Shown in pieces: positions 1-35,382 of a stretch of 64,000 nucleotides of DNA (position 1 is its first letter; every line of letters starts with the position of its first letter). Source of the stretch: Nitrosopumilus sp. (lineage in GTDB: Bacteria > Desulfobacterota > Binatia > UBA1149 > SPBQ01). The notes under the pieces are model-generated. The model had not been told where the DNA came from. It saw nothing but the letters and a program-made list of their open reading frames with translations, and ran no database searches. A program made the translations under genes and the position numbers. The stretch covers positions 39,452 to 103,451 of the forward strand of contig CAXQPB010000198.1 in the NCBI GenBank assembly GCA_964225545.1, given 5' to 3'.

Positions 1-69
1 TCACCACGGGCCGCCGGGGCCGGAAGCCACTCGAAGGCGACGGGCCGGTTCGCACTGCCGGGCAGGAAC

Positions 70-1491
70 ATGATGCCTCGCATGCTCCCCCTGCTGACCT
101 TCCTGACCACGCTGACCCTCGGCGGCTGTTCGCGCGACAGCGCTGAGCTGCCGCTCAGAACGCCGGAGGGCAACCCGCCGAACCTGTTGATCGTCTCGAT
201 CGACACGCTGCGAGCCGATCATCTCGGTGCATGGGGCTACGACCAACCGACCAGCCCGATGATCGATGAGCTCGCGGCGACAGGAGTCCGTTTCGAGCGC
301 GCACTGTCGCCCGCGTCGGAGACCGCTCCCGGAACCGCCTCGCTGCTCACCGGGCGATACGCCGACCGCCACGGCGCGTGGCACAACGTCGTCCCGCTCT
401 CGCCGGAGGCGACCACCATCGCCGAGCTCGCATCACGCGCGGGCTACCGGACGGGTGCGCTGGTCGGCAATCGTCTGCTGGCTGCCAGGTTCGGTTTCGC
501 GCAGGGCTTCGACTCCTTCCATGGTTTCTGGACCGAGAACGCCGAGGAGGCATCCGACGAGGTGGGAGTGTCGCGCGCGATCGAGTGGATCGAAGGACGC
601 GAAACCGACGCCGCCGACGCCGGCCGCCCGTGGTTCCTCTGGCTGCACCTGATGGACCCGCACGGCCCGTTCACATCCGCGGGTCCGGATTGGAGCAAGG
701 ATTTCGAGTATCCCGACGGTCGGTTCGGCGAGGACGCCGCGGTACGGCTCGCCATCGGCAACTACGGACTCGGAGTCATTCCGCGCTACCAGCAGATCGA
801 CGATCACGACCGGCTTTCCTATTATGTGCGCCGATACGACGGGGAGATTCGCTACACCGATCACCATCTCGGCCGGCTGATGCGGGCGCTGCGCGAACGC
901 CGGCTGCATCGCCGCACGCTCGTCGTATTGAGCGCCGACCACGGCGAGAGCCTGACGGGGCATCGCGAGTACCTCCAGCACGGTTGGTTCATTTACGACT
1001 CGACCGTCCGCGTCCCCCTGCTCTTCGCCCTGCCCGGCAGCCTGCCCGAGGGGGCGGTCGTCCGCGAGCCGGTGGGAACCATCGACGTCGTCCCGACGCT
1101 GGTCGAGCTGCTCGGTCTCGAAGCATCGCCGCAGGCCTTCGACGGACGCAGCCTGGCGGTCGCGCTGGCCGGCGGAAGAATCGATGCCGAACGCTCACTG
1201 TTCGGGTTCGGCGCGCGGGCGAACTACCCCTTCTCTGTCTCGCGTGGACGCTGGAAACTGATCCACACGACGGCCGGTACACCGCGTGACGCGCGGCTTT
1301 CGGTTCCGCCGGGCGGTTTCCAGAGCGCGGAGAGTGTCGAGCTCTACGACATCGTCAACGACCCAGGCGAGCTCGACAACCTTGCCGACGAGGCGCCGAA
1401 ACGCACAGACGAGATGCTCGCCGAGCTTTCCGCCTTCGAGATTCGCGTGAAGGCGTCCATCCCGGACGTCGGCCGCGCGCTGTCACGCTAG
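70..1491 (+). CDS. Sulfatase-like hydrolase (alkaline-phosphatase superfamily) lipoprotein; canonical C/S-x-P-x-R formylglycine motif not evident
   Basis: 473 aa. N-terminal signal with lipobox LTLGG|C. Sulfatase-like N-terminal region (LLIVSIDTLRADHLGAWGY ... LLTGRY) and C-terminal HGE/HREY-type block. Region aligned to CxPxR reads SPASETAPG. Confidence 0.7.
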   Translation: MMPRMLPLLTFLTTLTLGGCSRDSAELPLRTPEGNPPNLLIVSIDTLRADHLGAWGYDQPTSPMIDELAATGVRFERALSPASETAPGTASLLTGRYADRHGAWHNVVPLSPEATTIAELASRAGYRTGALVGNRLLAARFGFAQGFDSFHGFWTENAEEASDEVGVSRAIEWIEGRETDAADAGRPWFLWLHLMDPHGPFTSAGPDWSKDFEYPDGRFGEDAAVRLAIGNYGLGVIPRYQQIDDHDRLSYYVRRYDGEIRYTDHHLGRLMRALRERRLHRRTLVVLSADHGESLTGHREYLQHGWFIYDSTVRVPLLFALPGSLPEGAVVREPVGTIDVVPTLVELLGLEASPQAFDGRSLAVALAGGRIDAERSLFGFGARANYPFSVSRGRWKLIHTTAGTPRDARLSVPPGGFQSAESVELYDIVNDPGELDNLADEAPKRTDEMLAELSAFEIRVKASIPDVGRALSR

Positions 1492-1514
1492 CCCCTACAA
1501 CCCGTATAGCCCGC

Positions 1515-2363
1515 TCAGCCCGGAATGCCCGAGCCTGTAACAATCGGCGTGTTGGTCCAGCCGCCACCGGGCACCCGATAGAATCCCCCTGCGGCAAGCG
1601 CACCCCCGTCGACGTGGACCGTTGTTCCGGTCACCCAGGCCGAAAGCTTTGAAGCGAGGAACAGCACGCTGCCGGCGATGTCGTCGGGGCGACCGAAGCG
1701 GCCTGCGGGGATCCAGTACGGTTCCCGGTCACGATGCTCGGCGGGGATCCAGCGGCTGGGCTGTACCTGCTCGGTTTCGGTCGTCTCGGGAGCCACCGCG
1801 TTGACACGAATCCCCTCGGGGCCGAGCTCGAGCGCCAGGCTGCGGGTGAAACCGGTGATCGCCGACTTGAAAGCCGAGTAGACGGCGCAGCCCGGTATAC
1901 CGCGAAACGCCTCGATCGTAGTCACGTTGACGATGCTGCCGCCGCGACCGGCATCGATCATCGCAGGCAGCAACGCGTGCGTGCAGGTCAGGACGTGATC
2001 CAGGTTCACCCGATACAGAGCGTCCCAGTCCTCGTGGCGGGAATCGACGAAGCGGCCCGCCGAGAGATAATGGCCGACATTGTTGACCAGAATATCGGGC
2101 GCGCCGAGCTCGGCGAGGACGCGATCACGGAGACGATCGACGTCTTCGCGCTCACGTACGTCCGCGGGAGCGTCGAGCGCCCTGCCCCCGCGCTCTTCGA
2201 TCGCGCGCGCGACCTCGGCGGAGCGTTGCGGAACGCTGTCTACAACGGCGACCGAGGCACCATGCGCGGCGAGGCTCTCGGCGACCGCACGCCCGATCCC
2301 GGCACCGGCGCCGGTGACGACGGCAGTGCTTCCTTCCAACATGATCGTATCGCGATCCAGCAT
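1515..2363 (-). CDS. Short-chain dehydrogenase/reductase (SDR)
   Basis: TGAGAGIG Rossmann motif, NNVG and YSAFK (YxxxK) motifs. Start chosen at MLDRDTIML within the longer ORF 1515..2489. Confidence 0.75.
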   Translation of the reverse strand: MLDRDTIMLEGSTAVVTGAGAGIGRAVAESLAAHGASVAVVDSVPQRSAEVARAIEERGGRALDAPADVREREDVDRLRDRVLAELGAPDILVNNVGHYLSAGRFVDSRHEDWDALYRVNLDHVLTCTHALLPAMIDAGRGGSIVNVTTIEAFRGIPGCAVYSAFKSAITGFTRSLALELGPEGIRVNAVAPETTETEQVQPSRWIPAEHRDREPYWIPAGRFGRPDDIAGSVLFLASKLSAWVTGTTVHVDGGALAAGGFYRVPGGGWTNTPIVTGSGIPG

Positions 2364-2577
2364 GATCGTTCCTCCTCGGGTTGTGCTCGCCGGAACGGCC
2401 CCTGCGTGCCCGGTTGCGATACGCGCTCGACGAGGCAGCGGCAAGGCAGCGAGAGGACAGGGACTGGACGGGGACAGGACAGTCTGCATGGCGGGCAGTT
2501 GCGACCACGTCGCCTGGCACCTATGCTCCGTCGCCGACCGTCAAAGCGGTCGACCCCCGATGCGATCCTCCGACCCC

Positions 2578-3366
2578 ATGGATTTTTCAGGCAAAGCCGT
2601 CGTCGTTACGGGCGGCGCGCGCGGCGTCGGCCGCGGTATCACGCGCCGCTTTCTCGAACACGGCGCCGATGTGGTGATCTGCGGCCGCCACGAACCCGAC
2701 GAGCTTCCGGCTGTCGCGAACCGCCGCGCGTCCTTCGTGGCCGCCGACGTACGAGACCCCGAGCAGGTCGCCGCTGTGGTCAAAGCTACCGTCGAACGCC
2801 ACGGGCGACTCGACGTGCTGGTCAACAATGCCGGTGGAGCGCCGTTTGCCGAAGCCGCAACGGCTTCACCGCGCTTCTCGGAGAAGATCATCCAGCTCAA
2901 TCTGATCGCGCCGCTCACCTTCGCGCAGCGGGCCAATGCGGTCATGCAGTCACAGGAAAGCGGCGGCGTCATAATCAATATCGCGAGCGTCAGCGCGGTG
3001 AGGCCATCGCCGGGGACGGCTGCATACGGCGCCGCGAAGGCCGGTCTGCTGAGCCTCACGCAGAGCCTCGCGGTCGAATGGGCGCCCAAGGTGCGCGTCA
3101 CCGCGGTCACGGCGGGAATGGTGAAGACCGAGCAGGCCCACCTGCATTACGGCGACGACGACGGAATCGCCGCTGTCTCGGCGACCGTTCCACTCGGGCG
3201 GCTCGCCGAGCCTGACGACGTCGGCGACGCATGTCTGTTTCTGGCCTCACCGCTGGCGTCCTATGTCAGCGGCGCGGACCTGCTGCTGCACGGCGGCGGT
3301 GAGCGTCCCGCGTTTCTCGACGCGGCGATCAACGCAACTCACGAGAACAGCAAAAAGGGAGATTAG
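2578..3366 (+). CDS. Short-chain dehydrogenase/reductase (SDR)
   Basis: MDFSGKAVVVTGGARGVG, NNAGG, YGAAK motifs. ATG at 2578 inside the longer ORF 2080..3366. Divergent from the SDR at 1515..2363. Confidence 0.75.
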   Translation: MDFSGKAVVVTGGARGVGRGITRRFLEHGADVVICGRHEPDELPAVANRRASFVAADVRDPEQVAAVVKATVERHGRLDVLVNNAGGAPFAEAATASPRFSEKIIQLNLIAPLTFAQRANAVMQSQESGGVIINIASVSAVRPSPGTAAYGAAKAGLLSLTQSLAVEWAPKVRVTAVTAGMVKTEQAHLHYGDDDGIAAVSATVPLGRLAEPDDVGDACLFLASPLASYVSGADLLLHGGGERPAFLDAAINATHENSKKGD

Positions 3367-3371
3367 AAAAG

Positions 3372-3830
3372 ATGGCGACCGTGATCGGATCACCGGCAGA
3401 GCTGCCGGAAATGGTGGGGAAACACCTCGGCTACAGCGACTGGCTCGACATAGACCAGGAACGCGTGAACCTGTTTGCAGACGCGACCGGGGATCATCAG
3501 TGGATCCATATCGACCCCGAGGCTGCGAAGTCGGGACCGTTCGGGACCACGATCGCACACGGCTACCTGACACTGTCTCTCATCAGTTACTTCCTGCCCC
3601 GCATCGTACGCGTGGAGAATGTCTCCATGGGCGTGAACTACGGATGCGACAAGGTCCGATTCCCGGCCCCGGTCCCCGTCGGCTCGAAGATTCGTGCAGG
3701 CGCCGAGCTCGTCAAGGTCGATGAGATCAAAGGGTCCTACCAGGCCATCATCCGGGTATCGATCGAGGTGGAGGGAAACGACCGGCCCTCATGCGTGGCC
3801 GACACCATCAGCCGTTTCTTCCCGGCGTGA
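3372..3830 (+). CDS. MaoC-like (R)-specific enoyl-CoA hydratase, hot-dog fold
   Basis: 152 aa. Hot-dog/MaoC signature (DATGDHQWIHIDPEAA...TIAHGYLTLS). Starts 6 nt after the SDR stop. Confidence 0.75.
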   Translation: MATVIGSPAELPEMVGKHLGYSDWLDIDQERVNLFADATGDHQWIHIDPEAAKSGPFGTTIAHGYLTLSLISYFLPRIVRVENVSMGVNYGCDKVRFPAPVPVGSKIRAGAELVKVDEIKGSYQAIIRVSIEVEGNDRPSCVADTISRFFPA

Positions 3831-4350
3831 GGCGGAGTCGGTCGAACGAATTCCAGCTGCCGTTCCGCGCAACGCTCCTGAACCGGCAGCCCTGACAATA
3901 CGCAGCCCCGCGGCCGGTGGACGAAACCGACCGCGAGGCAAGGCCGGGTCCACGTCACCGCCGTCCGAACGAACGCGACGCATCGACTCCGGCCTGGCAA
4001 GCTCGCATCGGTTGGACCGCACGGACCAACCGTTTTGCGAGCAAACCTCGAGCCGGAAGCAGGGCTCGAGGTCCGAGCAAGTGCTCGTTGCCGAAAACCA
4101 CCAACCTTTGTCGGGCTGCCTTCGGTCGTCTCGCTGTGCGCGGCCGATATGCGGCACGGGCGAGCGACATTCTTGATGCCTCACTACGGCATCATACGAA
4201 GCGATAACGCGGCTACGCGAACCTCGTCAATGACGAAAAGAGCAAGTCGTCGAGTTTAACGACCGTTATTCGTGTTTTGTACTGAAAACCCCGAGTGGAA
4301 AACCCTCGAAGGGAAGCCTGTCGAAGTCATGGGTCGGAGCTGCACGACCT

Positions 4351-4728
4351 TCAGACAGGGTCGGTCGCGTAGAGCACGGATCGCTCGAGCGCATTCTCTC
4401 GAAGGTGGGCGATCGCCTGATATTGGTCCGATTCGACCATTTTGAGGAAGTCTCCGCGGCTCGGGTAACGGACCAGAACGATCATGTCCCAGTCCTGCCC
4501 TCCGAGCAGCGACTCCGCCGCCATCGCCTGGTACTCGATGCTTCCACCGACAGCTTCGATGAGTGGCTGGACGGATTGACCGTATTGAATGTAGCTCCGC
4601 AGGCCGCCGTCCGGTTTGAACTTCAGCATGTTGAGCATCACGACGGGCCAGTCCACGCTGCGCGCAGCGAAGGCAGCGAGAACGTCCGGCGAAAGCTCCG
4701 CCGCAGGTTCTCGTTTTGTTTCGCTCAT
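4351..4728 (-). CDS. DUF1330 family protein
   Basis: 125 aa starting MSETKRE. Length and sequence character fit DUF1330. ATG overlaps the stop of the upstream DUF1329 gene (ATGA). Confidence 0.55.
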   Translation of the reverse strand: MSETKREPAAELSPDVLAAFAARSVDWPVVMLNMLKFKPDGGLRSYIQYGQSVQPLIEAVGGSIEYQAMAAESLLGGQDWDMIVLVRYPSRGDFLKMVESDQYQAIAHLRENALERSVLYATDPV

Positions 4729-6044
4729 CGCCCGCCCGCGATCAGTGACTGAACGCTGTACCAGTCCTCGGCGACCGACGAAGGGTGATCGAACCCGAGA
4801 TCCAGATACCAGCCCGGCTCGTTCTGGAAGGCCAGCCCGGGAATCGCCACGCGCGTGCTGTGCTGCAGCTGGATATCGATCACCGAGTACGCGTAGGCGA
4901 ACATACGCTCCTCCGGGTACTCGAAGTCGACTTTGGGGTTGGGCCGGTTCGACACTCGGAAACTCAGGATGACCGTCTTCCACAGCTCGCCGCCGGGATC
5001 GTAGAGGTCGGAATACGGAATGATGTTCGCCTCTTTGTCGACATAGATCACGCGCTTGGAGAACGCGTATTTCGGGGACTTCGACTTGCCTTCGACAATG
5101 TAGACCGAGGGCCGCATCTCCCACGGTTCACAGAACGTCATGCCGCCATCCGACTTGCACGGCTCCGGAGGCAGTCTCTTGCCATGCAGGGAGGCGAGCA
5201 TCGGCTTCTCGCCGAGCAGCTTCCACTCGAACCAGGGAATCTGCCCCGCGTAGCCACCGTAGCTGTCTACATCGATATCCTGTCCGAAGAGCGCGTCACT
5301 TCGCTGGGTCGTTGACATACGACGAACACGGCGCGCGAAAGGAAGATACAGCCAGGTGTCATCGTGCTTGGCCTGGTCGAGATAACGGAAACTGATACCG
5401 CCGACGCCCTTGAGGTCGAACGGCTCGATCAGCGGATACAGGCCGGCCTTGTAGAAGACCTCATCCTTGTTCGGTTCGATGCTGGGCTTGGGATCGTTGC
5501 GAAGCCGTCCCTGGAAGCGAAGCACGCGGAACCATTCAGGGATGAAGTGCCGCTCGACGGAATACATGGGGTTGCCCTCGGAGTCGGTTTCCATCGCTCC
5601 GGTGTCGGCGTCCATCAGGTTCAGATCCAGCGTCTCCGTGAAGTAGTGGGTACGCTGGAAGTTGTACATGATCTTGGTGGCCGCATGCGGGTCGTTCGAA
5701 TCGATGTCCGGGAACGGGAGACCTGCGATCCAGTTTTCGAGCTCGGCGTTCTCTCCGAGCTTGACCTGCGCGGAGTACTTCTCGGTCGCCTCCTGGTAGT
5801 CGGCAGGCACAGAGATCTTTCCATACGGTACGATCTCCATGTCCATTCCGTTCTCAACGCACCACAGGACCCCCTCGGGGACGAGTCCGCGAACCTTCTC
5901 GAGGTTCTTCTTGGTGATGATCTCGCCGGGTTTCACCTCGGCGGATGCAGCGTACGGCGCGATGTGAAACGCGAGCGAAAAGAACGTGACAGCGAAAAGC
6001 GAAACGCGCAGGTGCGCACCAAAAGAACGAATCTCGGGTAACAC
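4725..6044 (-). CDS. DUF1329 family secreted protein (family linked to outer-membrane lipid/hydrophobic-substrate uptake)
   Basis: 439 aa. GTG start with GGAGGG RBS. Signal peptide ending AASA|EV. N-terminal block IITKKNLEKVRGLVPEGVLWCVENGMDMEIVPYG resembles the DUF1329 N-terminus as I recall it. Confidence 0.6.
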   Translation of the reverse strand: MLPEIRSFGAHLRVSLFAVTFFSLAFHIAPYAASAEVKPGEIITKKNLEKVRGLVPEGVLWCVENGMDMEIVPYGKISVPADYQEATEKYSAQVKLGENAELENWIAGLPFPDIDSNDPHAATKIMYNFQRTHYFTETLDLNLMDADTGAMETDSEGNPMYSVERHFIPEWFRVLRFQGRLRNDPKPSIEPNKDEVFYKAGLYPLIEPFDLKGVGGISFRYLDQAKHDDTWLYLPFARRVRRMSTTQRSDALFGQDIDVDSYGGYAGQIPWFEWKLLGEKPMLASLHGKRLPPEPCKSDGGMTFCEPWEMRPSVYIVEGKSKSPKYAFSKRVIYVDKEANIIPYSDLYDPGGELWKTVILSFRVSNRPNPKVDFEYPEERMFAYAYSVIDIQLQHSTRVAIPGLAFQNEPGWYLDLGFDHPSSVAEDWYSVQSLIAGGR

Positions 6045-6204
6045 GAAGCGATCCCTCCAGACCGGGCGCCCCTTGTGCAGAAGGATCAGGCGGGCAAACC
6101 GGCATACATCGTTTTAGTCCATGTTCGGGTTCGACGCCACCACGAGTCGTATCCGACACAGACAGCACTTGCACTGATTTTCCTGGGCTGAAAAAAAGCC
6201 CGTC

Positions 6205-7029
6205 ATGACCGATGAAAAGAAACGCGAGACCGTTCTAGAAACGATCGAGGGCGGAGTGCTCACCGTGACCCTGAACCGCCCTCGTCACAAGAACGCCTTC
6301 AATGCCGCGATGTGGCGGGACGCCCGGGAAAGCCTTGAGGACGCGCTTGCCGACGATCGCGTCCGAGCCGTGGTCATCACGGGCGCCGGGGGAGCCTTCT
6401 CGGCCGGTCAGGACCTCGCAGAGATGAGCAACCTTTCACCGGGCTCCGACTCCGACGACGCATCGGGTCAAGACAACGGTTTTTCACTCTTCATGGATGT
6501 GCTCTGCGACTTCGACAAGCCGCTGATCGCGGCGGTCAACGGGGTCGGGGTCGGCATCGGGATCACACTGCTGCTTCATTGCGACTACGCCTGCATCGCT
6601 CGTGGCTCGCGCCTCCGGGCGCCATTCGTGACCCTCGGCGTGGTTCCGGAAGCCGCGAGCAGTTACCTGTTCCCCGCAGTCATCGGTTATCGCAACGCGA
6701 TCGACCTTCTGTTCGAATCCGATTTCATCAGCGCGGAACGATCCGTCGAGCTCGGGATCGCGACCGACCTGTGCGAGCCCGAAGAAGTGCTGGCCGTTGC
6801 AAGCCGCCGCGCCCAACACCTCGCCGCGAAGCCGCTCGGCTCGCTTCGACACACGAAACGACTGGTTCTGGCGACTCGGCGCGAACAGGTCGATGCAGCA
6901 CGGCGACGAGAGGACGCCGCCTTCGTCGGTCGCATCGGCAGCGCCGAGAACATCGAAGCGGTAACCGCGTTCTTCGAGAAGCGCGACCCGGATTTCAGCG
7001 AGGTACCCCCGCACGATCGCGAACCCTGA
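6205..7029 (+). CDS. Enoyl-CoA hydratase/isomerase (crotonase family)
   Basis: 274 aa with crotonase-fold signature (VVITGAGGAFSAGQDL ... AAVNGVGVGIGITLLLHCD). An unusual Asp/Ser-rich insertion follows SAGQDL. Confidence 0.8.
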   Translation: MTDEKKRETVLETIEGGVLTVTLNRPRHKNAFNAAMWRDARESLEDALADDRVRAVVITGAGGAFSAGQDLAEMSNLSPGSDSDDASGQDNGFSLFMDVLCDFDKPLIAAVNGVGVGIGITLLLHCDYACIARGSRLRAPFVTLGVVPEAASSYLFPAVIGYRNAIDLLFESDFISAERSVELGIATDLCEPEEVLAVASRRAQHLAAKPLGSLRHTKRLVLATRREQVDAARRREDAAFVGRIGSAENIEAVTAFFEKRDPDFSEVPPHDREP

Positions 7030-7080
7030 GCCGGGACAGCCGACCGATCCGCGCAACGCGGACGGGCGCTCGGTCGGCGC

Positions 7081-9024
7081 TCAGGTCGCGCCGGCGACAG
7101 CGGGGATACAAACGCGGAATGTCTTGCTGGCCCGGAGGCTCTTCGGGCCGAACGCATCCCGAACGTAAAGATCAGCTCCGGCGAACTTGTCCTGTTTCGG
7201 TGTCGTCTTCGCGTCCTTGACCTTGAAGCACTGCAGGAACTCGTTCGGTTCGCTCGGCTCGATCCCGTTCACCGCGACCGGCACGCAGAAAGCACTTGGT
7301 CCGATTACCACAGTCTGCTTCTGCTCGAAGTCATCCACGAGTGTGACGGTGCGGCGCTCCAGCTTCGGCGAACCCGCAGCGCGTTTGGCACGGTAGCACT
7401 TGAATGCGTCGAGCAATCCGGAAGCCAGCGCCGGCGGCGCCCCTGATGCCGAACTCGACGACGGCATACAAAGCGTCTCCGGTTTGAGGATCTGCAGAGA
7501 CTCGCTGCCGAATGCATGAGAGATCTGCACCGATGTCGCCTGGAACTTCGGCTGCGGCGCAGCCGTGGTCGAATCCTTGATCTTGTAACAGACCGCGTGC
7601 GCCTCCGGGATGGCCGCCTCGACGCCGTCGCGCGATGCCGGATTGCCGACCGCATGGACCTTGGAAACATGGGTCGATCGCGAGTCCAGAGCATCGATCA
7701 GTTCGACATCGGTGGGTACGAACGGCTCCCCGATCCGGCCGCGCTTGGCGCGGTAGAATTTGAAGACGTCGAGGGTGCAGGCTTGTGCATCGGACAGGCA
7801 GACGCCGACGTCGCACTGCTCGGTGGTACAACCGATCTCATCGGAGCACGGGGTCCCTGTCAGGGGCGTGCAATCGCTCGGCGCCCCCTGGTCGCATGAA
7901 TGACATTCCTCGACAGAGCAGACAGACGAACATCCGTCACCGGCTGCACCGTTCCCGTCATCACAGCTCTCGTTGCCCTCGACGACACCGTCACCGCATT
8001 GTGCGCCCCAGCCGATGTCCGCAAGGAGTTGTCCGGTCAGTAGAATCTCGGACTGCGGGGAAGCGAACGGTTCCATGAGCTCGTCCGTGCCGCCCGCCGA
8101 GAAGGCGGTGTCGAAGTGGGAAACCGACGATCCGCTGCGCACCGGGTCAGGCGCATACATACGAACCTTCCCGTCGGTCAGACCTGATGTGAGAATTCCT
8201 GACCCGGCGGTCACGGCGGCGCCCGACCATACGAGGTTGCCGGAATCAACAACGGACGCGGCCCGCTGCTGGTTGCTCATCTCCTCCCAACCGAGACCGC
8301 TGTCCGCATCGCTGAGGTTTCGCGCGTAGCTGTCGATCAGATCGAAAAACAGCGCCCCGGTCGACGGATCGACGAGCGAGGTGAACCCGATCCCGTGTGC
8401 GATCTCGTGCAGCACGGTGCGGTAGAACGAGATCGTTCCAGAAGGCCCTTCCTCGGGCCCGACGCTGTAGTACCAGTTCGCGCCTTGCAGACAGGAGTCG
8501 TTGTTATCGATACTCTCGTTGAAGGCGGCCTGCAGATCGGACGTGTTCGACATGAGGTCAGTATTCGCCAAGCGGTTCGCGAGCGCGGCCGGATACCACG
8601 TCGAGGCGTGAGGCGCATCGACGCCGCCCGCTGCCGGCACCCAGTCGCGGGCGACGGTCCGTACGCTCGCGCCGCCGAGCACCGCCGAGCCGGCGTTGCA
8701 GCTCATCGCGACCATCTGGACGTCCATCGAGACAGGGATATTGCTGTCCAGACGAGTTCCCCACTCGTTCGCAGCCGCCTCCATCGACGCCTTGCGCTGC
8801 TGTCCGAGCGTGTCGCCCGGCGCCGTCGAGCTCGGGTCGGCAGGCAACTCAGAAGCGAAACCGTCTGTCGGGTTGACGTAAAGAACCGACACATCAGCTG
8901 CACTGGCGATATCAACACCGTGGAGCAACCCGATACTCACCACGACCGGCCAGGCCGCCGCACGCAAAGCCGGCGGTCGGCTGCGGCGAACCGGAACTGA
9001 ACACCTCTCGCGCGCGGCCATCAT
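7081..9024 (-). CDS. Secreted HExxH zinc-metallopeptidase-like protein with Myxococcus-type Cys-rich repeat and four C-terminal ~48-aa repeats
   Basis: 647 aa with signal peptide. Motif VLHEIAHGIGF (HExxHxxGF). CGDGVVEGNESCDDGN matches the Myxococcus cysteine-rich repeat pattern. Four repeats of F/C-Y/F-K/R-x-K...PKF...C-x-P. ATG overlaps the stop of the upstream small gene (ATGA). Confidence 0.6.
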   Translation of the reverse strand: MMAARERCSVPVRRSRPPALRAAAWPVVVSIGLLHGVDIASAADVSVLYVNPTDGFASELPADPSSTAPGDTLGQQRKASMEAAANEWGTRLDSNIPVSMDVQMVAMSCNAGSAVLGGASVRTVARDWVPAAGGVDAPHASTWYPAALANRLANTDLMSNTSDLQAAFNESIDNNDSCLQGANWYYSVGPEEGPSGTISFYRTVLHEIAHGIGFTSLVDPSTGALFFDLIDSYARNLSDADSGLGWEEMSNQQRAASVVDSGNLVWSGAAVTAGSGILTSGLTDGKVRMYAPDPVRSGSSVSHFDTAFSAGGTDELMEPFASPQSEILLTGQLLADIGWGAQCGDGVVEGNESCDDGNGAAGDGCSSVCSVEECHSCDQGAPSDCTPLTGTPCSDEIGCTTEQCDVGVCLSDAQACTLDVFKFYRAKRGRIGEPFVPTDVELIDALDSRSTHVSKVHAVGNPASRDGVEAAIPEAHAVCYKIKDSTTAAPQPKFQATSVQISHAFGSESLQILKPETLCMPSSSSASGAPPALASGLLDAFKCYRAKRAAGSPKLERRTVTLVDDFEQKQTVVIGPSAFCVPVAVNGIEPSEPNEFLQCFKVKDAKTTPKQDKFAGADLYVRDAFGPKSLRASKTFRVCIPAVAGAT

Positions 9025-27060: not shown

Positions 27061-27111
27061 GCGCCGACCGAGCGCCCGTCCGCGTTGCGCGGATCGGTCG
27101 GCTGTCCCGGC

Positions 27112-27936
27112 TCAGGGTTCGCGATCGTGCGGGGGTACCTCGCTGAAATCCGGGTCGCGCTTCTCGAAGAACGCGGTTACCGCTTCGATGTTCTCGGCGC
27201 TGCCGATGCGACCGACGAAGGCGGCGTCCTCTCGTCGCCGTGCTGCATCGACCTGTTCGCGCCGAGTCGCCAGAACCAGTCGTTTCGTGTGTCGAAGCGA
27301 GCCGAGCGGCTTCGCGGCGAGGTGTTGGGCGCGGCGGCTTGCAACGGCCAGCACTTCTTCGGGCTCGCACAGGTCGGTCGCGATCCCGAGCTCGACGGAT
27401 CGTTCCGCGCTGATGAAATCGGATTCGAACAGAAGGTCGATCGCGTTGCGATAACCGATGACTGCGGGGAACAGGTAACTGCTCGCGGCTTCCGGAACCA
27501 CGCCGAGGGTCACGAATGGCGCCCGGAGGCGCGAGCCACGAGCGATGCAGGCGTAGTCGCAATGAAGCAGCAGTGTGATCCCGATGCCGACCCCGACCCC
27601 GTTGACCGCCGCGATCAGCGGCTTGTCGAAGTCGCAGAGCACATCCATGAAGAGTGAAAAACCGTTGTCTTGACCCGATGCGTCGTCGGAGTCGGAGCCC
27701 GGTGAAAGGTTGCTCATCTCTGCGAGGTCCTGACCGGCCGAGAAGGCTCCCCCGGCGCCCGTGATGACCACGGCTCGGACGCGATCGTCGGCAAGCGCGT
27801 CCTCAAGGCTTTCCCGGGCGTCCCGCCACATCGCGGCATTGAAGGCGTTCTTGTGACGAGGGCGGTTCAGGGTCACGGTGAGCACTCCGCCCTCGATCGT
27901 TTCTAGAACGGTCTCGCGTTTCTTTTCATCGGTCAT
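27112..27936 (-). CDS. Mirror copy of enoyl-CoA hydratase/isomerase (6205..7029)
   Basis: Identical translation. Confidence 0.8.
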   Translation of the reverse strand: MTDEKKRETVLETIEGGVLTVTLNRPRHKNAFNAAMWRDARESLEDALADDRVRAVVITGAGGAFSAGQDLAEMSNLSPGSDSDDASGQDNGFSLFMDVLCDFDKPLIAAVNGVGVGIGITLLLHCDYACIARGSRLRAPFVTLGVVPEAASSYLFPAVIGYRNAIDLLFESDFISAERSVELGIATDLCEPEEVLAVASRRAQHLAAKPLGSLRHTKRLVLATRREQVDAARRREDAAFVGRIGSAENIEAVTAFFEKRDPDFSEVPPHDREP

Positions 27937-28096
27937 GACGGGCTTTTTTTCAGCCCAGGAAAATCAGTGCAAGTGCTGTCTGTGTCGGATACGACTCGTG
28001 GTGGCGTCGAACCCGAACATGGACTAAAACGATGTATGCCGGTTTGCCCGCCTGATCCTTCTGCACAAGGGGCGCCCGGTCTGGAGGGATCGCTTC

Positions 28097-29416
28097 GTGT
28101 TACCCGAGATTCGTTCTTTTGGTGCGCACCTGCGCGTTTCGCTTTTCGCTGTCACGTTCTTTTCGCTCGCGTTTCACATCGCGCCGTACGCTGCATCCGC
28201 CGAGGTGAAACCCGGCGAGATCATCACCAAGAAGAACCTCGAGAAGGTTCGCGGACTCGTCCCCGAGGGGGTCCTGTGGTGCGTTGAGAACGGAATGGAC
28301 ATGGAGATCGTACCGTATGGAAAGATCTCTGTGCCTGCCGACTACCAGGAGGCGACCGAGAAGTACTCCGCGCAGGTCAAGCTCGGAGAGAACGCCGAGC
28401 TCGAAAACTGGATCGCAGGTCTCCCGTTCCCGGACATCGATTCGAACGACCCGCATGCGGCCACCAAGATCATGTACAACTTCCAGCGTACCCACTACTT
28501 CACGGAGACGCTGGATCTGAACCTGATGGACGCCGACACCGGAGCGATGGAAACCGACTCCGAGGGCAACCCCATGTATTCCGTCGAGCGGCACTTCATC
28601 CCTGAATGGTTCCGCGTGCTTCGCTTCCAGGGACGGCTTCGCAACGATCCCAAGCCCAGCATCGAACCGAACAAGGATGAGGTCTTCTACAAGGCCGGCC
28701 TGTATCCGCTGATCGAGCCGTTCGACCTCAAGGGCGTCGGCGGTATCAGTTTCCGTTATCTCGACCAGGCCAAGCACGATGACACCTGGCTGTATCTTCC
28801 TTTCGCGCGCCGTGTTCGTCGTATGTCAACGACCCAGCGAAGTGACGCGCTCTTCGGACAGGATATCGATGTAGACAGCTACGGTGGCTACGCGGGGCAG
28901 ATTCCCTGGTTCGAGTGGAAGCTGCTCGGCGAGAAGCCGATGCTCGCCTCCCTGCATGGCAAGAGACTGCCTCCGGAGCCGTGCAAGTCGGATGGCGGCA
29001 TGACGTTCTGTGAACCGTGGGAGATGCGGCCCTCGGTCTACATTGTCGAAGGCAAGTCGAAGTCCCCGAAATACGCGTTCTCCAAGCGCGTGATCTATGT
29101 CGACAAAGAGGCGAACATCATTCCGTATTCCGACCTCTACGATCCCGGCGGCGAGCTGTGGAAGACGGTCATCCTGAGTTTCCGAGTGTCGAACCGGCCC
29201 AACCCCAAAGTCGACTTCGAGTACCCGGAGGAGCGTATGTTCGCCTACGCGTACTCGGTGATCGATATCCAGCTGCAGCACAGCACGCGCGTGGCGATTC
29301 CCGGGCTGGCCTTCCAGAACGAGCCGGGCTGGTATCTGGATCTCGGGTTCGATCACCCTTCGTCGGTCGCCGAGGACTGGTACAGCGTTCAGTCACTGAT
29401 CGCGGGCGGGCGATGA
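28097..29416 (+). CDS. Mirror copy of the DUF1329 protein (4725..6044)
   Basis: Identical translation. Confidence 0.6.
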   Translation: MLPEIRSFGAHLRVSLFAVTFFSLAFHIAPYAASAEVKPGEIITKKNLEKVRGLVPEGVLWCVENGMDMEIVPYGKISVPADYQEATEKYSAQVKLGENAELENWIAGLPFPDIDSNDPHAATKIMYNFQRTHYFTETLDLNLMDADTGAMETDSEGNPMYSVERHFIPEWFRVLRFQGRLRNDPKPSIEPNKDEVFYKAGLYPLIEPFDLKGVGGISFRYLDQAKHDDTWLYLPFARRVRRMSTTQRSDALFGQDIDVDSYGGYAGQIPWFEWKLLGEKPMLASLHGKRLPPEPCKSDGGMTFCEPWEMRPSVYIVEGKSKSPKYAFSKRVIYVDKEANIIPYSDLYDPGGELWKTVILSFRVSNRPNPKVDFEYPEERMFAYAYSVIDIQLQHSTRVAIPGLAFQNEPGWYLDLGFDHPSSVAEDWYSVQSLIAGGR

Positions 29417-29790
29417 GCGAAACAAAACGAGAACCTGCGGCGGAGCTTTCGCCGGACGTTCTCGCTGCCTTCGCTGCGCGCAGCGTGGACTGGCCCGTCG
29501 TGATGCTCAACATGCTGAAGTTCAAACCGGACGGCGGCCTGCGGAGCTACATTCAATACGGTCAATCCGTCCAGCCACTCATCGAAGCTGTCGGTGGAAG
29601 CATCGAGTACCAGGCGATGGCGGCGGAGTCGCTGCTCGGAGGGCAGGACTGGGACATGATCGTTCTGGTCCGTTACCCGAGCCGCGGAGACTTCCTCAAA
29701 ATGGTCGAATCGGACCAATATCAGGCGATCGCCCACCTTCGAGAGAATGCGCTCGAGCGATCCGTGCTCTACGCGACCGACCCTGTCTGA
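29413..29790 (+). CDS. Mirror copy of the DUF1330 protein (4351..4728)
   Basis: Identical translation. Confidence 0.55.
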   Translation: MSETKREPAAELSPDVLAAFAARSVDWPVVMLNMLKFKPDGGLRSYIQYGQSVQPLIEAVGGSIEYQAMAAESLLGGQDWDMIVLVRYPSRGDFLKMVESDQYQAIAHLRENALERSVLYATDPV

Positions 29791-30310
29791 AGGTCGTGCA
29801 GCTCCGACCCATGACTTCGACAGGCTTCCCTTCGAGGGTTTTCCACTCGGGGTTTTCAGTACAAAACACGAATAACGGTCGTTAAACTCGACGACTTGCT
29901 CTTTTCGTCATTGACGAGGTTCGCGTAGCCGCGTTATCGCTTCGTATGATGCCGTAGTGAGGCATCAAGAATGTCGCTCGCCCGTGCCGCATATCGGCCG
30001 CGCACAGCGAGACGACCGAAGGCAGCCCGACAAAGGTTGGTGGTTTTCGGCAACGAGCACTTGCTCGGACCTCGAGCCCTGCTTCCGGCTCGAGGTTTGC
30101 TCGCAAAACGGTTGGTCCGTGCGGTCCAACCGATGCGAGCTTGCCAGGCCGGAGTCGATGCGTCGCGTTCGTTCGGACGGCGGTGACGTGGACCCGGCCT
30201 TGCCTCGCGGTCGGTTTCGTCCACCGGCCGCGGGGCTGCGTATTGTCAGGGCTGCCGGTTCAGGAGCGTTGCGCGGAACGGCAGCTGGAATTCGTTCGAC
30301 CGACTCCGCC

Positions 30311-30769
30311 TCACGCCGGGAAGAAACGGCTGATGGTGTCGGCCACGCATGAGGGCCGGTCGTTTCCCTCCACCTCGATCGATACCCGGATGATGGCCTG
30401 GTAGGACCCTTTGATCTCATCGACCTTGACGAGCTCGGCGCCTGCACGAATCTTCGAGCCGACGGGGACCGGGGCCGGGAATCGGACCTTGTCGCATCCG
30501 TAGTTCACGCCCATGGAGACATTCTCCACGCGTACGATGCGGGGCAGGAAGTAACTGATGAGAGACAGTGTCAGGTAGCCGTGTGCGATCGTGGTCCCGA
30601 ACGGTCCCGACTTCGCAGCCTCGGGGTCGATATGGATCCACTGATGATCCCCGGTCGCGTCTGCAAACAGGTTCACGCGTTCCTGGTCTATGTCGAGCCA
30701 GTCGCTGTAGCCGAGGTGTTTCCCCACCATTTCCGGCAGCTCTGCCGGTGATCCGATCACGGTCGCCAT
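30311..30769 (-). CDS. Mirror copy of the MaoC-like hydratase (3372..3830)
   Basis: Identical translation. Confidence 0.75.
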   Translation of the reverse strand: MATVIGSPAELPEMVGKHLGYSDWLDIDQERVNLFADATGDHQWIHIDPEAAKSGPFGTTIAHGYLTLSLISYFLPRIVRVENVSMGVNYGCDKVRFPAPVPVGSKIRAGAELVKVDEIKGSYQAIIRVSIEVEGNDRPSCVADTISRFFPA

Positions 30770-30774
30770 CTTTT

Positions 30775-31563
30775 CTAATCTCCCTTTTTGCTGTTCTCGT
30801 GAGTTGCGTTGATCGCCGCGTCGAGAAACGCGGGACGCTCACCGCCGCCGTGCAGCAGCAGGTCCGCGCCGCTGACATAGGACGCCAGCGGTGAGGCCAG
30901 AAACAGACATGCGTCGCCGACGTCGTCAGGCTCGGCGAGCCGCCCGAGTGGAACGGTCGCCGAGACAGCGGCGATTCCGTCGTCGTCGCCGTAATGCAGG
31001 TGGGCCTGCTCGGTCTTCACCATTCCCGCCGTGACCGCGGTGACGCGCACCTTGGGCGCCCATTCGACCGCGAGGCTCTGCGTGAGGCTCAGCAGACCGG
31101 CCTTCGCGGCGCCGTATGCAGCCGTCCCCGGCGATGGCCTCACCGCGCTGACGCTCGCGATATTGATTATGACGCCGCCGCTTTCCTGTGACTGCATGAC
31201 CGCATTGGCCCGCTGCGCGAAGGTGAGCGGCGCGATCAGATTGAGCTGGATGATCTTCTCCGAGAAGCGCGGTGAAGCCGTTGCGGCTTCGGCAAACGGC
31301 GCTCCACCGGCATTGTTGACCAGCACGTCGAGTCGCCCGTGGCGTTCGACGGTAGCTTTGACCACAGCGGCGACCTGCTCGGGGTCTCGTACGTCGGCGG
31401 CCACGAAGGACGCGCGGCGGTTCGCGACAGCCGGAAGCTCGTCGGGTTCGTGGCGGCCGCAGATCACCACATCGGCGCCGTGTTCGAGAAAGCGGCGCGT
31501 GATACCGCGGCCGACGCCGCGCGCGCCGCCCGTAACGACGACGGCTTTGCCTGAAAAATCCAT
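30775..31563 (-). CDS. Mirror copy of SDR (2578..3366)
   Basis: Identical translation. Confidence 0.75.
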   Translation of the reverse strand: MDFSGKAVVVTGGARGVGRGITRRFLEHGADVVICGRHEPDELPAVANRRASFVAADVRDPEQVAAVVKATVERHGRLDVLVNNAGGAPFAEAATASPRFSEKIIQLNLIAPLTFAQRANAVMQSQESGGVIINIASVSAVRPSPGTAAYGAAKAGLLSLTQSLAVEWAPKVRVTAVTAGMVKTEQAHLHYGDDDGIAAVSATVPLGRLAEPDDVGDACLFLASPLASYVSGADLLLHGGGERPAFLDAAINATHENSKKGD

Positions 31564-31777
31564 GGGGTCGGAGGATCGCATCGGGGGTCGACCGCTTTGA
31601 CGGTCGGCGACGGAGCATAGGTGCCAGGCGACGTGGTCGCAACTGCCCGCCATGCAGACTGTCCTGTCCCCGTCCAGTCCCTGTCCTCTCGCTGCCTTGC
31701 CGCTGCCTCGTCGAGCGCGTATCGCAACCGGGCACGCAGGGGCCGTTCCGGCGAGCACAACCCGAGGAGGAACGATC

Positions 31778-32626
31778 ATGCTGGATCGCGATACGATCAT
31801 GTTGGAAGGAAGCACTGCCGTCGTCACCGGCGCCGGTGCCGGGATCGGGCGTGCGGTCGCCGAGAGCCTCGCCGCGCATGGTGCCTCGGTCGCCGTTGTA
31901 GACAGCGTTCCGCAACGCTCCGCCGAGGTCGCGCGCGCGATCGAAGAGCGCGGGGGCAGGGCGCTCGACGCTCCCGCGGACGTACGTGAGCGCGAAGACG
32001 TCGATCGTCTCCGTGATCGCGTCCTCGCCGAGCTCGGCGCGCCCGATATTCTGGTCAACAATGTCGGCCATTATCTCTCGGCGGGCCGCTTCGTCGATTC
32101 CCGCCACGAGGACTGGGACGCTCTGTATCGGGTGAACCTGGATCACGTCCTGACCTGCACGCACGCGTTGCTGCCTGCGATGATCGATGCCGGTCGCGGC
32201 GGCAGCATCGTCAACGTGACTACGATCGAGGCGTTTCGCGGTATACCGGGCTGCGCCGTCTACTCGGCTTTCAAGTCGGCGATCACCGGTTTCACCCGCA
32301 GCCTGGCGCTCGAGCTCGGCCCCGAGGGGATTCGTGTCAACGCGGTGGCTCCCGAGACGACCGAAACCGAGCAGGTACAGCCCAGCCGCTGGATCCCCGC
32401 CGAGCATCGTGACCGGGAACCGTACTGGATCCCCGCAGGCCGCTTCGGTCGCCCCGACGACATCGCCGGCAGCGTGCTGTTCCTCGCTTCAAAGCTTTCG
32501 GCCTGGGTGACCGGAACAACGGTCCACGTCGACGGGGGTGCGCTTGCCGCAGGGGGATTCTATCGGGTGCCCGGTGGCGGCTGGACCAACACGCCGATTG
32601 TTACAGGCTCGGGCATTCCGGGCTGA
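31778..32626 (+). CDS. Mirror copy of SDR (1515..2363)
   Basis: Identical translation. Confidence 0.75.
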   Translation: MLDRDTIMLEGSTAVVTGAGAGIGRAVAESLAAHGASVAVVDSVPQRSAEVARAIEERGGRALDAPADVREREDVDRLRDRVLAELGAPDILVNNVGHYLSAGRFVDSRHEDWDALYRVNLDHVLTCTHALLPAMIDAGRGGSIVNVTTIEAFRGIPGCAVYSAFKSAITGFTRSLALELGPEGIRVNAVAPETTETEQVQPSRWIPAEHRDREPYWIPAGRFGRPDDIAGSVLFLASKLSAWVTGTTVHVDGGALAAGGFYRVPGGGWTNTPIVTGSGIPG

Positions 32627-32649
32627 GCGGGCTATACGGGTTGTAGGGG

Positions 32650-34071
32650 CTAGCGTGACAGCGCGCGGCCGACGTCCGGGATGGACGCCTTCACGCGAAT
32701 CTCGAAGGCGGAAAGCTCGGCGAGCATCTCGTCTGTGCGTTTCGGCGCCTCGTCGGCAAGGTTGTCGAGCTCGCCTGGGTCGTTGACGATGTCGTAGAGC
32801 TCGACACTCTCCGCGCTCTGGAAACCGCCCGGCGGAACCGAAAGCCGCGCGTCACGCGGTGTACCGGCCGTCGTGTGGATCAGTTTCCAGCGTCCACGCG
32901 AGACAGAGAAGGGGTAGTTCGCCCGCGCGCCGAACCCGAACAGTGAGCGTTCGGCATCGATTCTTCCGCCGGCCAGCGCGACCGCCAGGCTGCGTCCGTC
33001 GAAGGCCTGCGGCGATGCTTCGAGACCGAGCAGCTCGACCAGCGTCGGGACGACGTCGATGGTTCCCACCGGCTCGCGGACGACCGCCCCCTCGGGCAGG
33101 CTGCCGGGCAGGGCGAAGAGCAGGGGGACGCGGACGGTCGAGTCGTAAATGAACCAACCGTGCTGGAGGTACTCGCGATGCCCCGTCAGGCTCTCGCCGT
33201 GGTCGGCGCTCAATACGACGAGCGTGCGGCGATGCAGCCGGCGTTCGCGCAGCGCCCGCATCAGCCGGCCGAGATGGTGATCGGTGTAGCGAATCTCCCC
33301 GTCGTATCGGCGCACATAATAGGAAAGCCGGTCGTGATCGTCGATCTGCTGGTAGCGCGGAATGACTCCGAGTCCGTAGTTGCCGATGGCGAGCCGTACC
33401 GCGGCGTCCTCGCCGAACCGACCGTCGGGATACTCGAAATCCTTGCTCCAATCCGGACCCGCGGATGTGAACGGGCCGTGCGGGTCCATCAGGTGCAGCC
33501 AGAGGAACCACGGGCGGCCGGCGTCGGCGGCGTCGGTTTCGCGTCCTTCGATCCACTCGATCGCGCGCGACACTCCCACCTCGTCGGATGCCTCCTCGGC
33601 GTTCTCGGTCCAGAAACCATGGAAGGAGTCGAAGCCCTGCGCGAAACCGAACCTGGCAGCCAGCAGACGATTGCCGACCAGCGCACCCGTCCGGTAGCCC
33701 GCGCGTGATGCGAGCTCGGCGATGGTGGTCGCCTCCGGCGAGAGCGGGACGACGTTGTGCCACGCGCCGTGGCGGTCGGCGTATCGCCCGGTGAGCAGCG
33801 AGGCGGTTCCGGGAGCGGTCTCCGACGCGGGCGACAGTGCGCGCTCGAAACGGACTCCTGTCGCCGCGAGCTCATCGATCATCGGGCTGGTCGGTTGGTC
33901 GTAGCCCCATGCACCGAGATGATCGGCTCGCAGCGTGTCGATCGAGACGATCAACAGGTTCGGCGGGTTGCCCTCCGGCGTTCTGAGCGGCAGCTCAGCG
34001 CTGTCGCGCGAACAGCCGCCGAGGGTCAGCGTGGTCAGGAAGGTCAGCAGGGGGAGCATGCGAGGCATCAT
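32650..34071 (-). CDS. Mirror copy of the sulfatase-like lipoprotein (70..1491)
   Basis: Identical translation. The 706-aa ORF 32650..34770 is this gene plus a spurious upstream in-frame extension; the real start is MMPRMLPLL (signal peptide + lipobox). Confidence 0.7.
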   Translation of the reverse strand: MMPRMLPLLTFLTTLTLGGCSRDSAELPLRTPEGNPPNLLIVSIDTLRADHLGAWGYDQPTSPMIDELAATGVRFERALSPASETAPGTASLLTGRYADRHGAWHNVVPLSPEATTIAELASRAGYRTGALVGNRLLAARFGFAQGFDSFHGFWTENAEEASDEVGVSRAIEWIEGRETDAADAGRPWFLWLHLMDPHGPFTSAGPDWSKDFEYPDGRFGEDAAVRLAIGNYGLGVIPRYQQIDDHDRLSYYVRRYDGEIRYTDHHLGRLMRALRERRLHRRTLVVLSADHGESLTGHREYLQHGWFIYDSTVRVPLLFALPGSLPEGAVVREPVGTIDVVPTLVELLGLEASPQAFDGRSLAVALAGGRIDAERSLFGFGARANYPFSVSRGRWKLIHTTAGTPRDARLSVPPGGFQSAESVELYDIVNDPGELDNLADEAPKRTDEMLAELSAFEIRVKASIPDVGRALSR

Positions 34072-34214
34072 GTTCCTGCCCGGCAGTGCGAACCGGCCCG
34101 TCGCCTTCGAGTGGCTTCCGGCCCCGGCGGCCCGTGGTGACGGTTCGCACCGCGCTGCCGGCGGTTCCGCGCTGTACCCCGCGCAGGCCCCTCGGCTGTC
34201 GTCCGGCGAGAGGA

Positions 34215-35366: not shown

Positions 35367-35382
35367 GCACGGGCTCCCGCTG

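Follow-up and report, generated by a model that had tools for sequence, protein, structure and literature searches.

Does the 34-kb perfect palindrome at the start of the window (the whole 64,000-nt stretch of DNA analysed here) belong to the organism's DNA, or did it arise when the sequence was produced? Positions 1..34140 form a perfect zero-loop palindrome in which position x pairs with position 34141-x, with 0 mismatches in 17,070 pairs, and the centre, at 17070|17071, is spacer-free (...CCTTGGAGTCG|CGACTCCAAGG...). Self-BLAST of the window gives a single inverted self-match, 1..34140 at 100.000% identity, and reveals no further repeats except a 36-nt imperfect palindrome at 60997..61032. 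A perfect inverted self-match of 34 kb cannot be produced by chance. The sulfatase ORF at 32650..34770 (− strand) runs over position 34140, and its twin at 70..1491 (+ strand) is clipped by the window edge. On both counts the data agree with a preliminary description of this DNA, which had reported a perfect zero-loop palindrome over 1..34140 and had proposed that the left arm ends only because the window starts there.

The innermost 26 nt of the structure (17058..17083), a point missed by the preliminary description, are palindromic in the native genome too. This native perfect palindrome, P (TGCCTTGGAGTCG|CGACTCCAAGGCA), is the putative point of fold-back nucleation, and its centre is exactly the centre of the giant palindrome. 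P is GC-rich, is present in single copy within the window, and constitutes an intergenic hairpin between two convergent genes. In 47.9 kb of native sequence it is the longest zero-loop palindrome, having 13-nt arms (next longest, 8 nt); in 200 shuffles, the maximum arm length averages 8.15 nt and is at most 12 nt. The predicted RNA hairpin has a free energy of −18 kcal/mol (z = −6.2), and P lacks a T-run and is therefore not a canonical intrinsic terminator. A random break would land on the centre of P with a probability of about 1 in 48,000 (~2e-5) over the 47.9 kb. The coincidence of the fold-back centre with the longest native palindrome thus speaks against an adapter-less read turning at a random position and in favour of a palindrome-dependent mechanism.

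The native surroundings of P are defined by assemblies of samples other than the window's own. We denote the native order L-P-R, where L is the arm side and R is the true neighbour of P, which is missing from the entire window. Four independent public assemblies of the same population (L001, L007, L008, and L121) are 99.8–100% identical to the arm, and all of them (L001 together with L123) depart from the window at the edge of P, at 17083/17084, and enter different genes. Specifically, L001 (ENA ERZ28772220) matches the window as far as 17083 with 99.84% identity over 10,469 nt, and L007 and L008 both match it at 100% as far as the same position; past 17083 the native contigs read TGCCCGGATCATCGG..., whereas the window has the mirror sequence AGACTCGGAG.... 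In L001, L007, and L008, P is flanked by unique sequence on either side. In L121 (NCBI MAG contig CAXQTF010000404.1, 27.5 kb), which carries P with one change at the outermost base, 8,084 nt of R-side genes are followed by P and then by 9,877 nt corresponding to window positions 17058..26934 at 99.91% identity; a search of the window for the 8,084-nt R-side sequence found none of it. The mirror junction was found in no other public contig.

Beyond P, the native contigs carry a convergent SDR gene and further unique genes over at least 8 kb. In particular, a gene for a Cys-rich protein and a gene for a 263-aa SDR (SDR263) converge on a 160-nt spacer that holds P, and this convergent pair is kept in a relative, L098, with 88.6% nucleotide identity. 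The authentic Cys-rich gene (17095..17526, − strand) encodes a Cys_rich_FGFR-repeat protein of 143 aa (PF00839, E = 7.6e-14), has its stop codon 11 nt from P, and is accompanied in the window by a false mirror copy at 16615..17046 (+ strand); the exact 143-aa protein occurs on 20 public contigs. The true neighbours hidden by the mirror comprise the 263-aa SDR, a PAS/HWE histidine kinase, an acyl-CoA dehydrogenase, and a CoA-transferase.

The window can accordingly be divided into three segments: a false mirror copy (left arm, 1..17057), which is the exact reverse complement of 17084..34140 and displaces the true neighbour; the authentic arm (17084..34140, + strand), which Pfam content and collinear contigs identify as real chromosomal sequence; and the unique continuation of the authentic arm (34141..64000, + strand), identified by Pfam content and by collinearity with L092. 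The authentic arm is collinear with L001/L134, L121, and L092 at 99.8–99.9% identity, and L092 (45 kb, ENA contig k127_10619477) aligns with 24215..45366 at 99.78% identity, ungapped and spanning 34140, a position that is not a real boundary. The preliminary description had thought the palindrome most likely a fold-back artefact in the assembly, with a left-arm copy that should not be relied on, and had taken the probable true order to be the right arm read outward from the centre into 34141 onward. The former is borne out by the four assemblies (99.8–100% identity) that leave the centre into non-mirror sequence, and the latter by the collinearity of L092 across 34140. Passage from the centre into non-mirror sequence was the confirming observation it had named, and here it comes from four assemblies of other samples rather than from the source reads.

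A palindrome that is physically real in the sampled population, whether an in vivo duplication or a hairpin-capped linear molecule, is very unlikely, also when the two are taken together. In bacteria, SbcCD-type nucleases cut long perfect palindromes that lack a spacer, and such palindromes are deleted; E. coli sbcCD mutants show inverted chromosome duplications at palindromes. An in vivo origin would involve a break or fork stall by P, after which the 3′ end folds back and is extended, so that a sub-population would carry 17 kb or more as an inverted duplication. Perfect arm identity would suit a very recent event of this kind, and the hallmark of the mechanism, as for the large DNA palindromes initiated in vivo by short inverted repeats (Tanaka et al., PNAS 2002, PMC124374), is that a short perfect inverted repeat occupies the exact centre. 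As in those palindromes and in the E. coli sbcCD case, for which the mechanism is fold-back priming, a short inverted repeat here occupies the centre of a far larger palindrome. However, those palindromes are backed by Southern or snap-back assays and come from mammalian cells or nuclease-deficient bacteria, whereas here the unrearranged junction is present in the four independent assemblies, the adjacency is kept in the relative, and no second public contig has the mirror junction. Moreover, a rare, unstable rearrangement would not become the consensus of a metagenome, and the second, distal junction that it requires is not visible in the window. We consider an in vivo duplication very improbable.

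Covalently closed hairpin telomeres made by protelomerases are known from phage N15 (TelN), Klebsiella phage phiKO2 (TelK), Agrobacterium (TelA), and Borrelia (ResT), and when replicated or read through they appear as a perfect zero-loop palindrome whose centre is a short palindromic target. If P were resolved by a protelomerase and the arm formed one end of a linear replicon, a read-through or replicated junction would likewise give a zero-loop palindrome centred on a short palindrome, a feature that does not discriminate. Such a lineage should never hold L-P-R, yet the four assemblies do, and the 88.6% relative has the adjacency; P is thus internal to a continuous chromosome region elsewhere in the same strain. 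All of the ~40 ORFs across the window encode catabolic enzymes or regulators by Pfam, with no protelomerase, partition, phage, plasmid, or mobile-element gene among them (47 kb of unique sequence), and comparison of the sequence with phages, plasmids, and viral contigs gave no meaningful match. P itself lies between two convergent housekeeping-type genes, surrounded by ordinary catabolic genes. The reciprocal structure, R-P-reverse-R, was found in none of the 9 placed R-side contigs, and the two that pass P (L121 and L123) enter the arm, an observation of little weight as most contigs stop at P. The hairpin telomere offered in the preliminary description is contradicted by continuous L-P-R in several samples of the same strain and by the lack of a protelomerase in the window, where its own statement that no such gene is visible holds for the ~40 ORFs examined with Pfam; we regard this explanation as the least likely of all. 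If true, either structure, a palindrome exceeding 34 kb with no spacer or a new hairpin telomere from an uncultured phylum, would be remarkable. It would mean that a wild bacterium has an unusual tolerance of giant perfect palindromes, generated at an intergenic palindrome of 26 nt through fold-back or resolution; the evidence is against it.

The 34-kb palindrome is thus very probably a technical artefact, produced either in the assembly graph or through a chimeric molecule, and of these we lean towards an assembly-level graph fold-back at P, in which case the organism's DNA would have no such structure. Since P is identical on its two strands, every k-mer within it is common to the arm and to the reverse complement of the arm. 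If arm-side read coverage dies within P and the link to R is absent, a strand-symmetric de Bruijn graph with small k (21 to 27) contains one unbranched path, from the arm through P into the reverse-complement arm. Palindromic unitigs of this kind are reported whole by SPAdes and MEGAHIT, and multi-k assemblers carry low-k contigs forward. The outcome would be an arm written twice in mirror image, with its true neighbour gone and the two copies identical by construction.

Short-read assemblies demonstrably fail to bridge P. Across many samples, short-read contigs end inside P or at most 3 nt away from it in 7 of 10 cases on the arm side and in 4 of 9 on the R side, and the ends reached from the two sides fall at mirror-symmetric positions. 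The failure of coverage inside P could be due to microdiversity in the stem or to hairpin-linked sequencing error. We simulated a both-strand, node-centric k-mer graph from native sequence only, ending the arm-side coverage at +34 or +37. The unbranched path was identical to the fold-back in the window at k = 21 and, when reads extend to +37, also at values up to k = 27; under full coverage, the graph branches A/T at +37 at k ≤ 27 and reads through natively at k ≥ 29. Edge-centric implementations, which need the (k+1)-mer, would behave like k+1. Within this model, the simulation shows that a dead end inside P at k ≤ 27 would suffice to generate the exact sequence of the window without a chimeric read. 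The final k of modern assemblers is larger than 27, and the false path would therefore have to stem from a low-k round or from gap-filling; we infer both a small k in the assembler used for the window and a failure of coverage across P in its sample. The 100.000% identity of the arms is what a path passing twice through the same graph nodes would give. A 113,042-bp contig bears the exact proteins of the window and lacks SDR263, and its length, an even number, would fit a palindromic contig of full symmetry.

Palindromic unitigs form at self-complementary (k−1)-mers, and neither SPAdes nor MEGAHIT splits them (Rahman & Medvedev, Genome Res 2022, PMC9528984). The 34-kb palindrome resembles them in consisting of a sequence X followed by its reverse complement, with the 26-nt P providing such (k−1)-mers at every odd k up to and including 27. 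It differs in that the palindromes of that study are mostly true genomic ones split by some assemblers, whereas here the genomic palindrome is 26 nt long and the 34-kb one is false, and in that here the true exit from P would be missing from the graph; two points, arms as long as 17 kb or more and the need for a coverage gap, are our extrapolation from that case.

A physical chimera primed at P predicts the same sequence as the graph route. In that alternative, during sample processing, a single-stranded 3′ end located within P or slightly beyond it folds onto itself through a 13-bp stem, a polymerase (phi29 for MDA/WGA, or an end-repair or fill-in enzyme) extends it, and the arm-P-reverse-arm molecule is then sequenced as a long read and accepted by the assembler. 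The position of the centre, exactly on the strongest palindrome in 48 kb, and the hairpin energy of −18 kcal/mol are what snap-back priming needs, and a 17-kb arm is within long-read size. WGA is documented to give rise to long fragments that are artificially palindromic and to inverted duplications within assemblies (Pacasus, PMC6218980), ONT genomic DNA libraries contain ~0.55–0.6% fold-back reads that recur at the same sites, are attributed to library preparation, and can tangle assembly graphs (Breakinator, PMC12870357), and short-read library-preparation chimeras have been described at natural inverted repeats and palindromes (PDSM model, PMC10908179). Such fold-backs, which are site-recurrent, tied to natural inverted repeats or palindromes, and able to enter assemblies as inverted duplications (PMC6218980; PMC12870357; PMC10908179), share with the window a near-perfect forward-plus-reverse arrangement with nothing in between. 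They are, however, single reads with errors, whereas the window has a consensus that is free of errors and arms that match exactly. Compared over many kb with Logan contigs derived from Illumina data, the window shows 100% identity and no indel errors, which is neutral to slightly unfavourable for unpolished long reads, and a minority chimeric read would normally be outvoted by native reads unless located at a contig end. We regard a palindrome-primed chimera as possible, but less likely than the graph route. A fold-back read turning at a random fragment end (ONT template-to-complement, or PacBio with a missing adapter) is a far more doubtful source: such reads exist and yield zero-loop palindromes (PMC6218980; PMC12870357), but a fragment end would have to hit the centre of the sole 26-nt palindrome in 47.9 kb (~2e-5). 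Among the artefact routes named in the preliminary description, the adapter-less template-to-complement read is thus disfavoured by the centring on P, and palindrome-primed snap-back as in MDA is favoured, beside graph fold-back.

For use of the contig, 17058..64000 should be kept and 1..17057 discarded. The contig, probably a 113-kb MAG contig deposited at NCBI and ENA, contains a false duplicate of at least 17 kb, which inflates genome size and gene copy number, with the genes of 17084..34140 being counted twice; the false copy can also distort duplication and contamination estimates, and it hides the true neighbours of the arm. The value of the case lies in data quality, not in biology: it provides a worked example of how a short native palindrome and a coverage gap would give a giant palindromic contig. 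We suggest that MAG catalogues be screened for perfect inverted self-matches centred on a native palindrome of at least k−1, where k is the smallest k used.

The authentic arm (17084..34140) encodes, by Pfam, the Cys-rich repeat protein, an SDR, a MetA-like outer-membrane protein, a luciferase-like monooxygenase, WS/DGAT, an esterase, a DUF7450 protein, an enoyl-CoA hydratase, DUF1329, MaoC, SDRs, and the sulfatase. Its continuation (34141..64000) encodes acyl-CoA dehydrogenases, thiolases, a Ser/Thr kinase, TauD, CoA ligases, and others. For one of the enzymes, the nearest reference MAGs (≤74% amino-acid identity) carry the labels Binatia, Myxococcota, and other phyla.

The window contains a perfect palindrome at 1..34140 with no loop, as the preliminary description had stated. 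Positions x and 34141-x are complementary with 0 mismatches for all x in 1..17070, the centre reads ...CCTTGGAGTCG|CGACTCCAAGG... without a spacer, and self-BLAST of the window returns a single 34,140-nt inverted self-match at 100% identity and no further large repeat; chance is excluded. As had also been proposed, the left arm has no end other than the start of the window: a sulfatase ORF (32650..34770, minus strand) spans position 34140, and its twin (70..1491) is truncated by the window edge.

Public contigs that cross the centre indicate that the 34-kb palindrome is almost certainly not a real biological feature. Next to the centre in the arm is the gene for a 143-aa Cys-rich protein with Cys_rich_FGFR repeats (Pfam; 17095..17526, minus strand; mirror copy 16615..17046, plus strand), and the exact protein is present on 20 public contigs, three of which run past the centre: L001 (ENA ERZ28772220, MEGAHIT-style name k127_10619477, 45,327 bp; matching the window across 10,469 nt at 99.84%), L007 (Logan SRR34157545; 100%), and L008 (Logan SRR26389830; 100%). 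All three match the window to 17083, the outer edge of a 26-nt perfect palindrome, P, and then read TGCCCGGATCATCGG..., where the window instead has AGACTCGGAGTTTACAT, its own mirror. The native sequence beyond P (the R side) encodes a convergent 263-aa SDR (SDR263; Pfam). A look-up of this protein identified a fourth contig, L121 (CAXQTF010000404.1 of NCBI MAG GCA_964226695.1, 27,479 bp), which comprises 8,084 nt of R-side sequence, encoding a CoA-transferase, an acyl-CoA dehydrogenase, an SDR, a PAS/HWE histidine kinase, and SDR263; followed by P with one change, in its outermost base; followed by 9,877 nt that match window 17058..26934 at 99.91% without gaps. Comparison with the native contigs places the R-side sequence nowhere in the window.

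These four contigs, which leave the mirror at P, support the main reading of the preliminary description, a fold-back artefact, and its distrust of the left copy, in place of which native contigs carry the R side. The view that the right arm is authentic is likewise upheld: ENA contig k127_10619477 is collinear with window 24215..45366 (99.78%, gapless), indicating that the right arm, continuing into 34141 onward, is the true gene order. The converse possibility, that the contigs with native order across P are the real chimeras, was rejected, since four assemblies from at least two pipelines agree and the convergent gene on the R side is intact and accompanied by a hairpin of its own; in addition, every 31-mer of a Logan contig should derive from reads, which argues against L007 and L008 being chimeric. 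A 37-nt exact junction pattern had no matches in GTDB species-representative genomes or JGI metagenome contigs. In a relative, L098 (JGI contig, 88.6% nucleotide identity), the same convergent gene pair is present with a different hairpin sequence. Conservation of the adjacency fades fast, as an SDR263 relative at 84% (P0002) still has a Cys-rich gene at a distance of one gene, and a relative at 77% (P0005) lies on a contig without a Cys-rich gene nearby. The record should be corrected by retaining 17058..64000, dropping 1..17057, and restoring the left neighbour per CAXQTF010000404.1. The case is an unusually clean example for quality control and of low interest as biology.

P (TGCCTTGGAGTCG|CGACTCCAAGGCA, 17058..17083) has the same centre as the 34-kb palindrome and occurs once in the window. 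In a palindrome census of 47.9 kb of reconstructed native sequence, P is the longest zero-loop palindrome (13-nt arms; runner-up, 8-nt arms), and in 200 shuffles the maximum arm averaged 8.15 nt and never exceeded 12 nt. P is predicted to form a hairpin of −18 kcal/mol (z = −6.2), and its 24-nt core has no match in IMG/VR. P starts 11 nt past the stop codon of the Cys-rich gene. Because P lacks a T-run, and a scan for consensus terminators gave no hit in the native spacer, it is the location between convergent genes that would suggest a terminator role. Three copies of the motif ACTCC[G/A]AG, alternating in orientation, lie in 17047..17083 (mirror 17058..17094), at +1..+8, +15..+22 (reversed), and +27..+34, where +1 is the first base past the Cys-rich gene stop codon (17047); the spacer thus can fold into either of two mutually exclusive hairpins (pairing arms 1:2 or 2:3), for which a regulatory role is possible. 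A further GC-rich hairpin, GACCGCCCGGG ... CCCGGGCGGTC, lies outside the window in the native spacer (L001 10530..10575), adjoining the convergent SDR gene at its stop codon, and L098 has a hairpin of partly different sequence at the same position; there seems to be one hairpin per convergent gene. Elsewhere in the window, an intergenic 36-nt imperfect palindrome, GCGGCTGCGCAGGCCGG|CTCCGGCCTGCGCAGCCGC (60997..61032; 34/36), is another strong hairpin and a potential trouble spot for assembly.

Failed bridging of P is directly observed in other samples, where short-read contigs stop in P from both sides. On the same offset scale, arm-side contigs end at +13, +13, +15, +15, +15, +19, and +34, and R-side contigs end at +40, +34, +30, and +30. 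In many samples (L002-L010, L122, L125, L126, and L129), breaks fall at mirror-symmetric positions in P. In sample SRR36426605, the break lies at +15 for the arm-side contig and at +34 for the R-side contig. The 5th base of P, read inward, shows a T-to-G change from both sides (T16G in contig L004; the complement of A33 in contig L126), which reflects a compensated polymorphism of the stem or else a systematic sequencing error linked to the hairpin. Contig L122 (NCBI GCA_964230245.1, CAXRHK010000138.1) halts 3 nt before P, and its last ~60 nt carry seven A/T-to-C/G mismatches relative to other assemblies; this tail looks like an error-laden extension out of low-quality reads.

The position of the centre bears on how the fold-back arose. 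The fold-back artefact proposed in the preliminary description stands, with the refinement that it turned at a native palindrome, which shifts the likely kind of artefact. Had the turn occurred at an arbitrary fragment end, as in a template-to-complement nanopore read or an adapter-less SMRTbell read, it would coincide with the centre of P with a probability of only ~2e-5, implying that the mechanism depended on the palindrome. Two technical routes each predict exactly the sequence of the window. We favour, with a little more than even confidence, a fold-back in the k-mer graph of the assembler. K-mers within P are the same on both strands, and, because multi-k assemblers hand low-k contigs to later rounds, a false path formed at low k could be carried forward. 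In simulations of a both-strand k-mer graph with the native sequence as the only input, cutting arm-side coverage at +34 gave, at k = 21, one unbranched path identical to the fold-back of the window, and coverage to +37 kept this fold-back path unbranched up to k = 27; when coverage was complete, the graph branched (A or T) at +37 for k ≤ 27 and read through in native order for k ≥ 29. A self-complementary (k−1)-mer yields a palindromic unitig, which SPAdes and MEGAHIT output whole (Rahman and Medvedev, PMC9528984). Arms made in this way are identical by construction, matching the observed 100% arm identity. NCBI and ENA place the exact proteins of the window on a 113,042-bp contig that is probably its source, that lacks SDR263, and that did not turn up in the GTDB-representative and JGI collections; the even length hints at compatibility with a fully symmetric palindromic contig. 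A possible but less probable source is a physical chimera borne by long reads, in which a 3′ end within P folds onto itself and primes its own extension during amplification or end repair; artefacts of this type are documented for whole-genome amplification (WGA; PMC6218980) and in ONT genomic libraries (PMC12870357), and library artefacts are documented at natural palindromes (PMC10908179).

Biological origins are far less probable. The geometry would be the same for a large palindrome that truly formed in vivo from a short inverted repeat at its centre (the type of Tanaka et al. 2002). Such an origin is nonetheless very unlikely, as four independent assemblies from the same population carry the unrearranged junction and the mirror junction is in no other contig found. 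Long zero-spacer palindromes are, moreover, unstable in bacteria. A hairpin telomere at P, the alternative raised in the preliminary description, is contradicted more strongly still and is highly improbable: a telomere lineage should never have continuous native sequence across P, yet such sequence is present at 99.8–100% identity. Of the R-side contigs, two pass P and both enter the arm, with no reciprocal mirror end. The absence of a protelomerase from the window, noted earlier, agrees with a Pfam scan of ~40 probable genes picked by third-position GC, among which there are also no transposase, integrase, partition, or phage genes.

Each scanned gene encodes either a regulator or an ordinary catabolic enzyme for lipids, steroids, or hydrocarbons; among them are SDRs, a luciferase-like monooxygenase, WS/DGAT, an esterase, DUF1329, MaoC, enoyl-CoA hydratase, acyl-CoA dehydrogenases, thiolases, CoA ligases, TauD, and a Ser/Thr kinase. 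A scan of the whole window found no Rfam families or tRNAs, and megablast of the arm found nothing meaningful among plasmids (four trivial hits, 1–4% of the query) or phages (no hits). The luciferase-like monooxygenase has relatives at 80 MAG loci in species-representative genomes (≤74% amino-acid identity), labelled Binatia, Myxococcota, Deltaproteobacteria, Alphaproteobacteria, and other phyla; none of the 80 has other arm genes beside it, and synteny is absent. These relatives give a vague taxonomic hint to an uncultured host, nothing more. In the WS/DGAT gene (20597..), a premature TAG at 22073 (mirror 12068) stands in place of the GAG of L121, leaving an ORF with a C-terminus 20 codons shorter than the 512-aa gene of four other assemblies; the TAG reflects strain variation or else an error, and only a low-complexity tail is lost. 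A 647-aa Cys-rich protein (DUF4215/DUF7450, Pfam; 25117..27060, plus strand) lies within 8 kb of the 143-aa Cys-rich protein in the lipid-catabolism cluster, and both repeat proteins are identical across many samples. A 336-aa ORF (37881..38891, plus strand) matches both glutamine synthetase domains (Pfam), covering just the first ~155 of 344 positions of the catalytic-domain model, and may encode a GS-like or gamma-glutamyl-ligase-type enzyme; a GGACT-domain gene (40985..41494) adjoins it.
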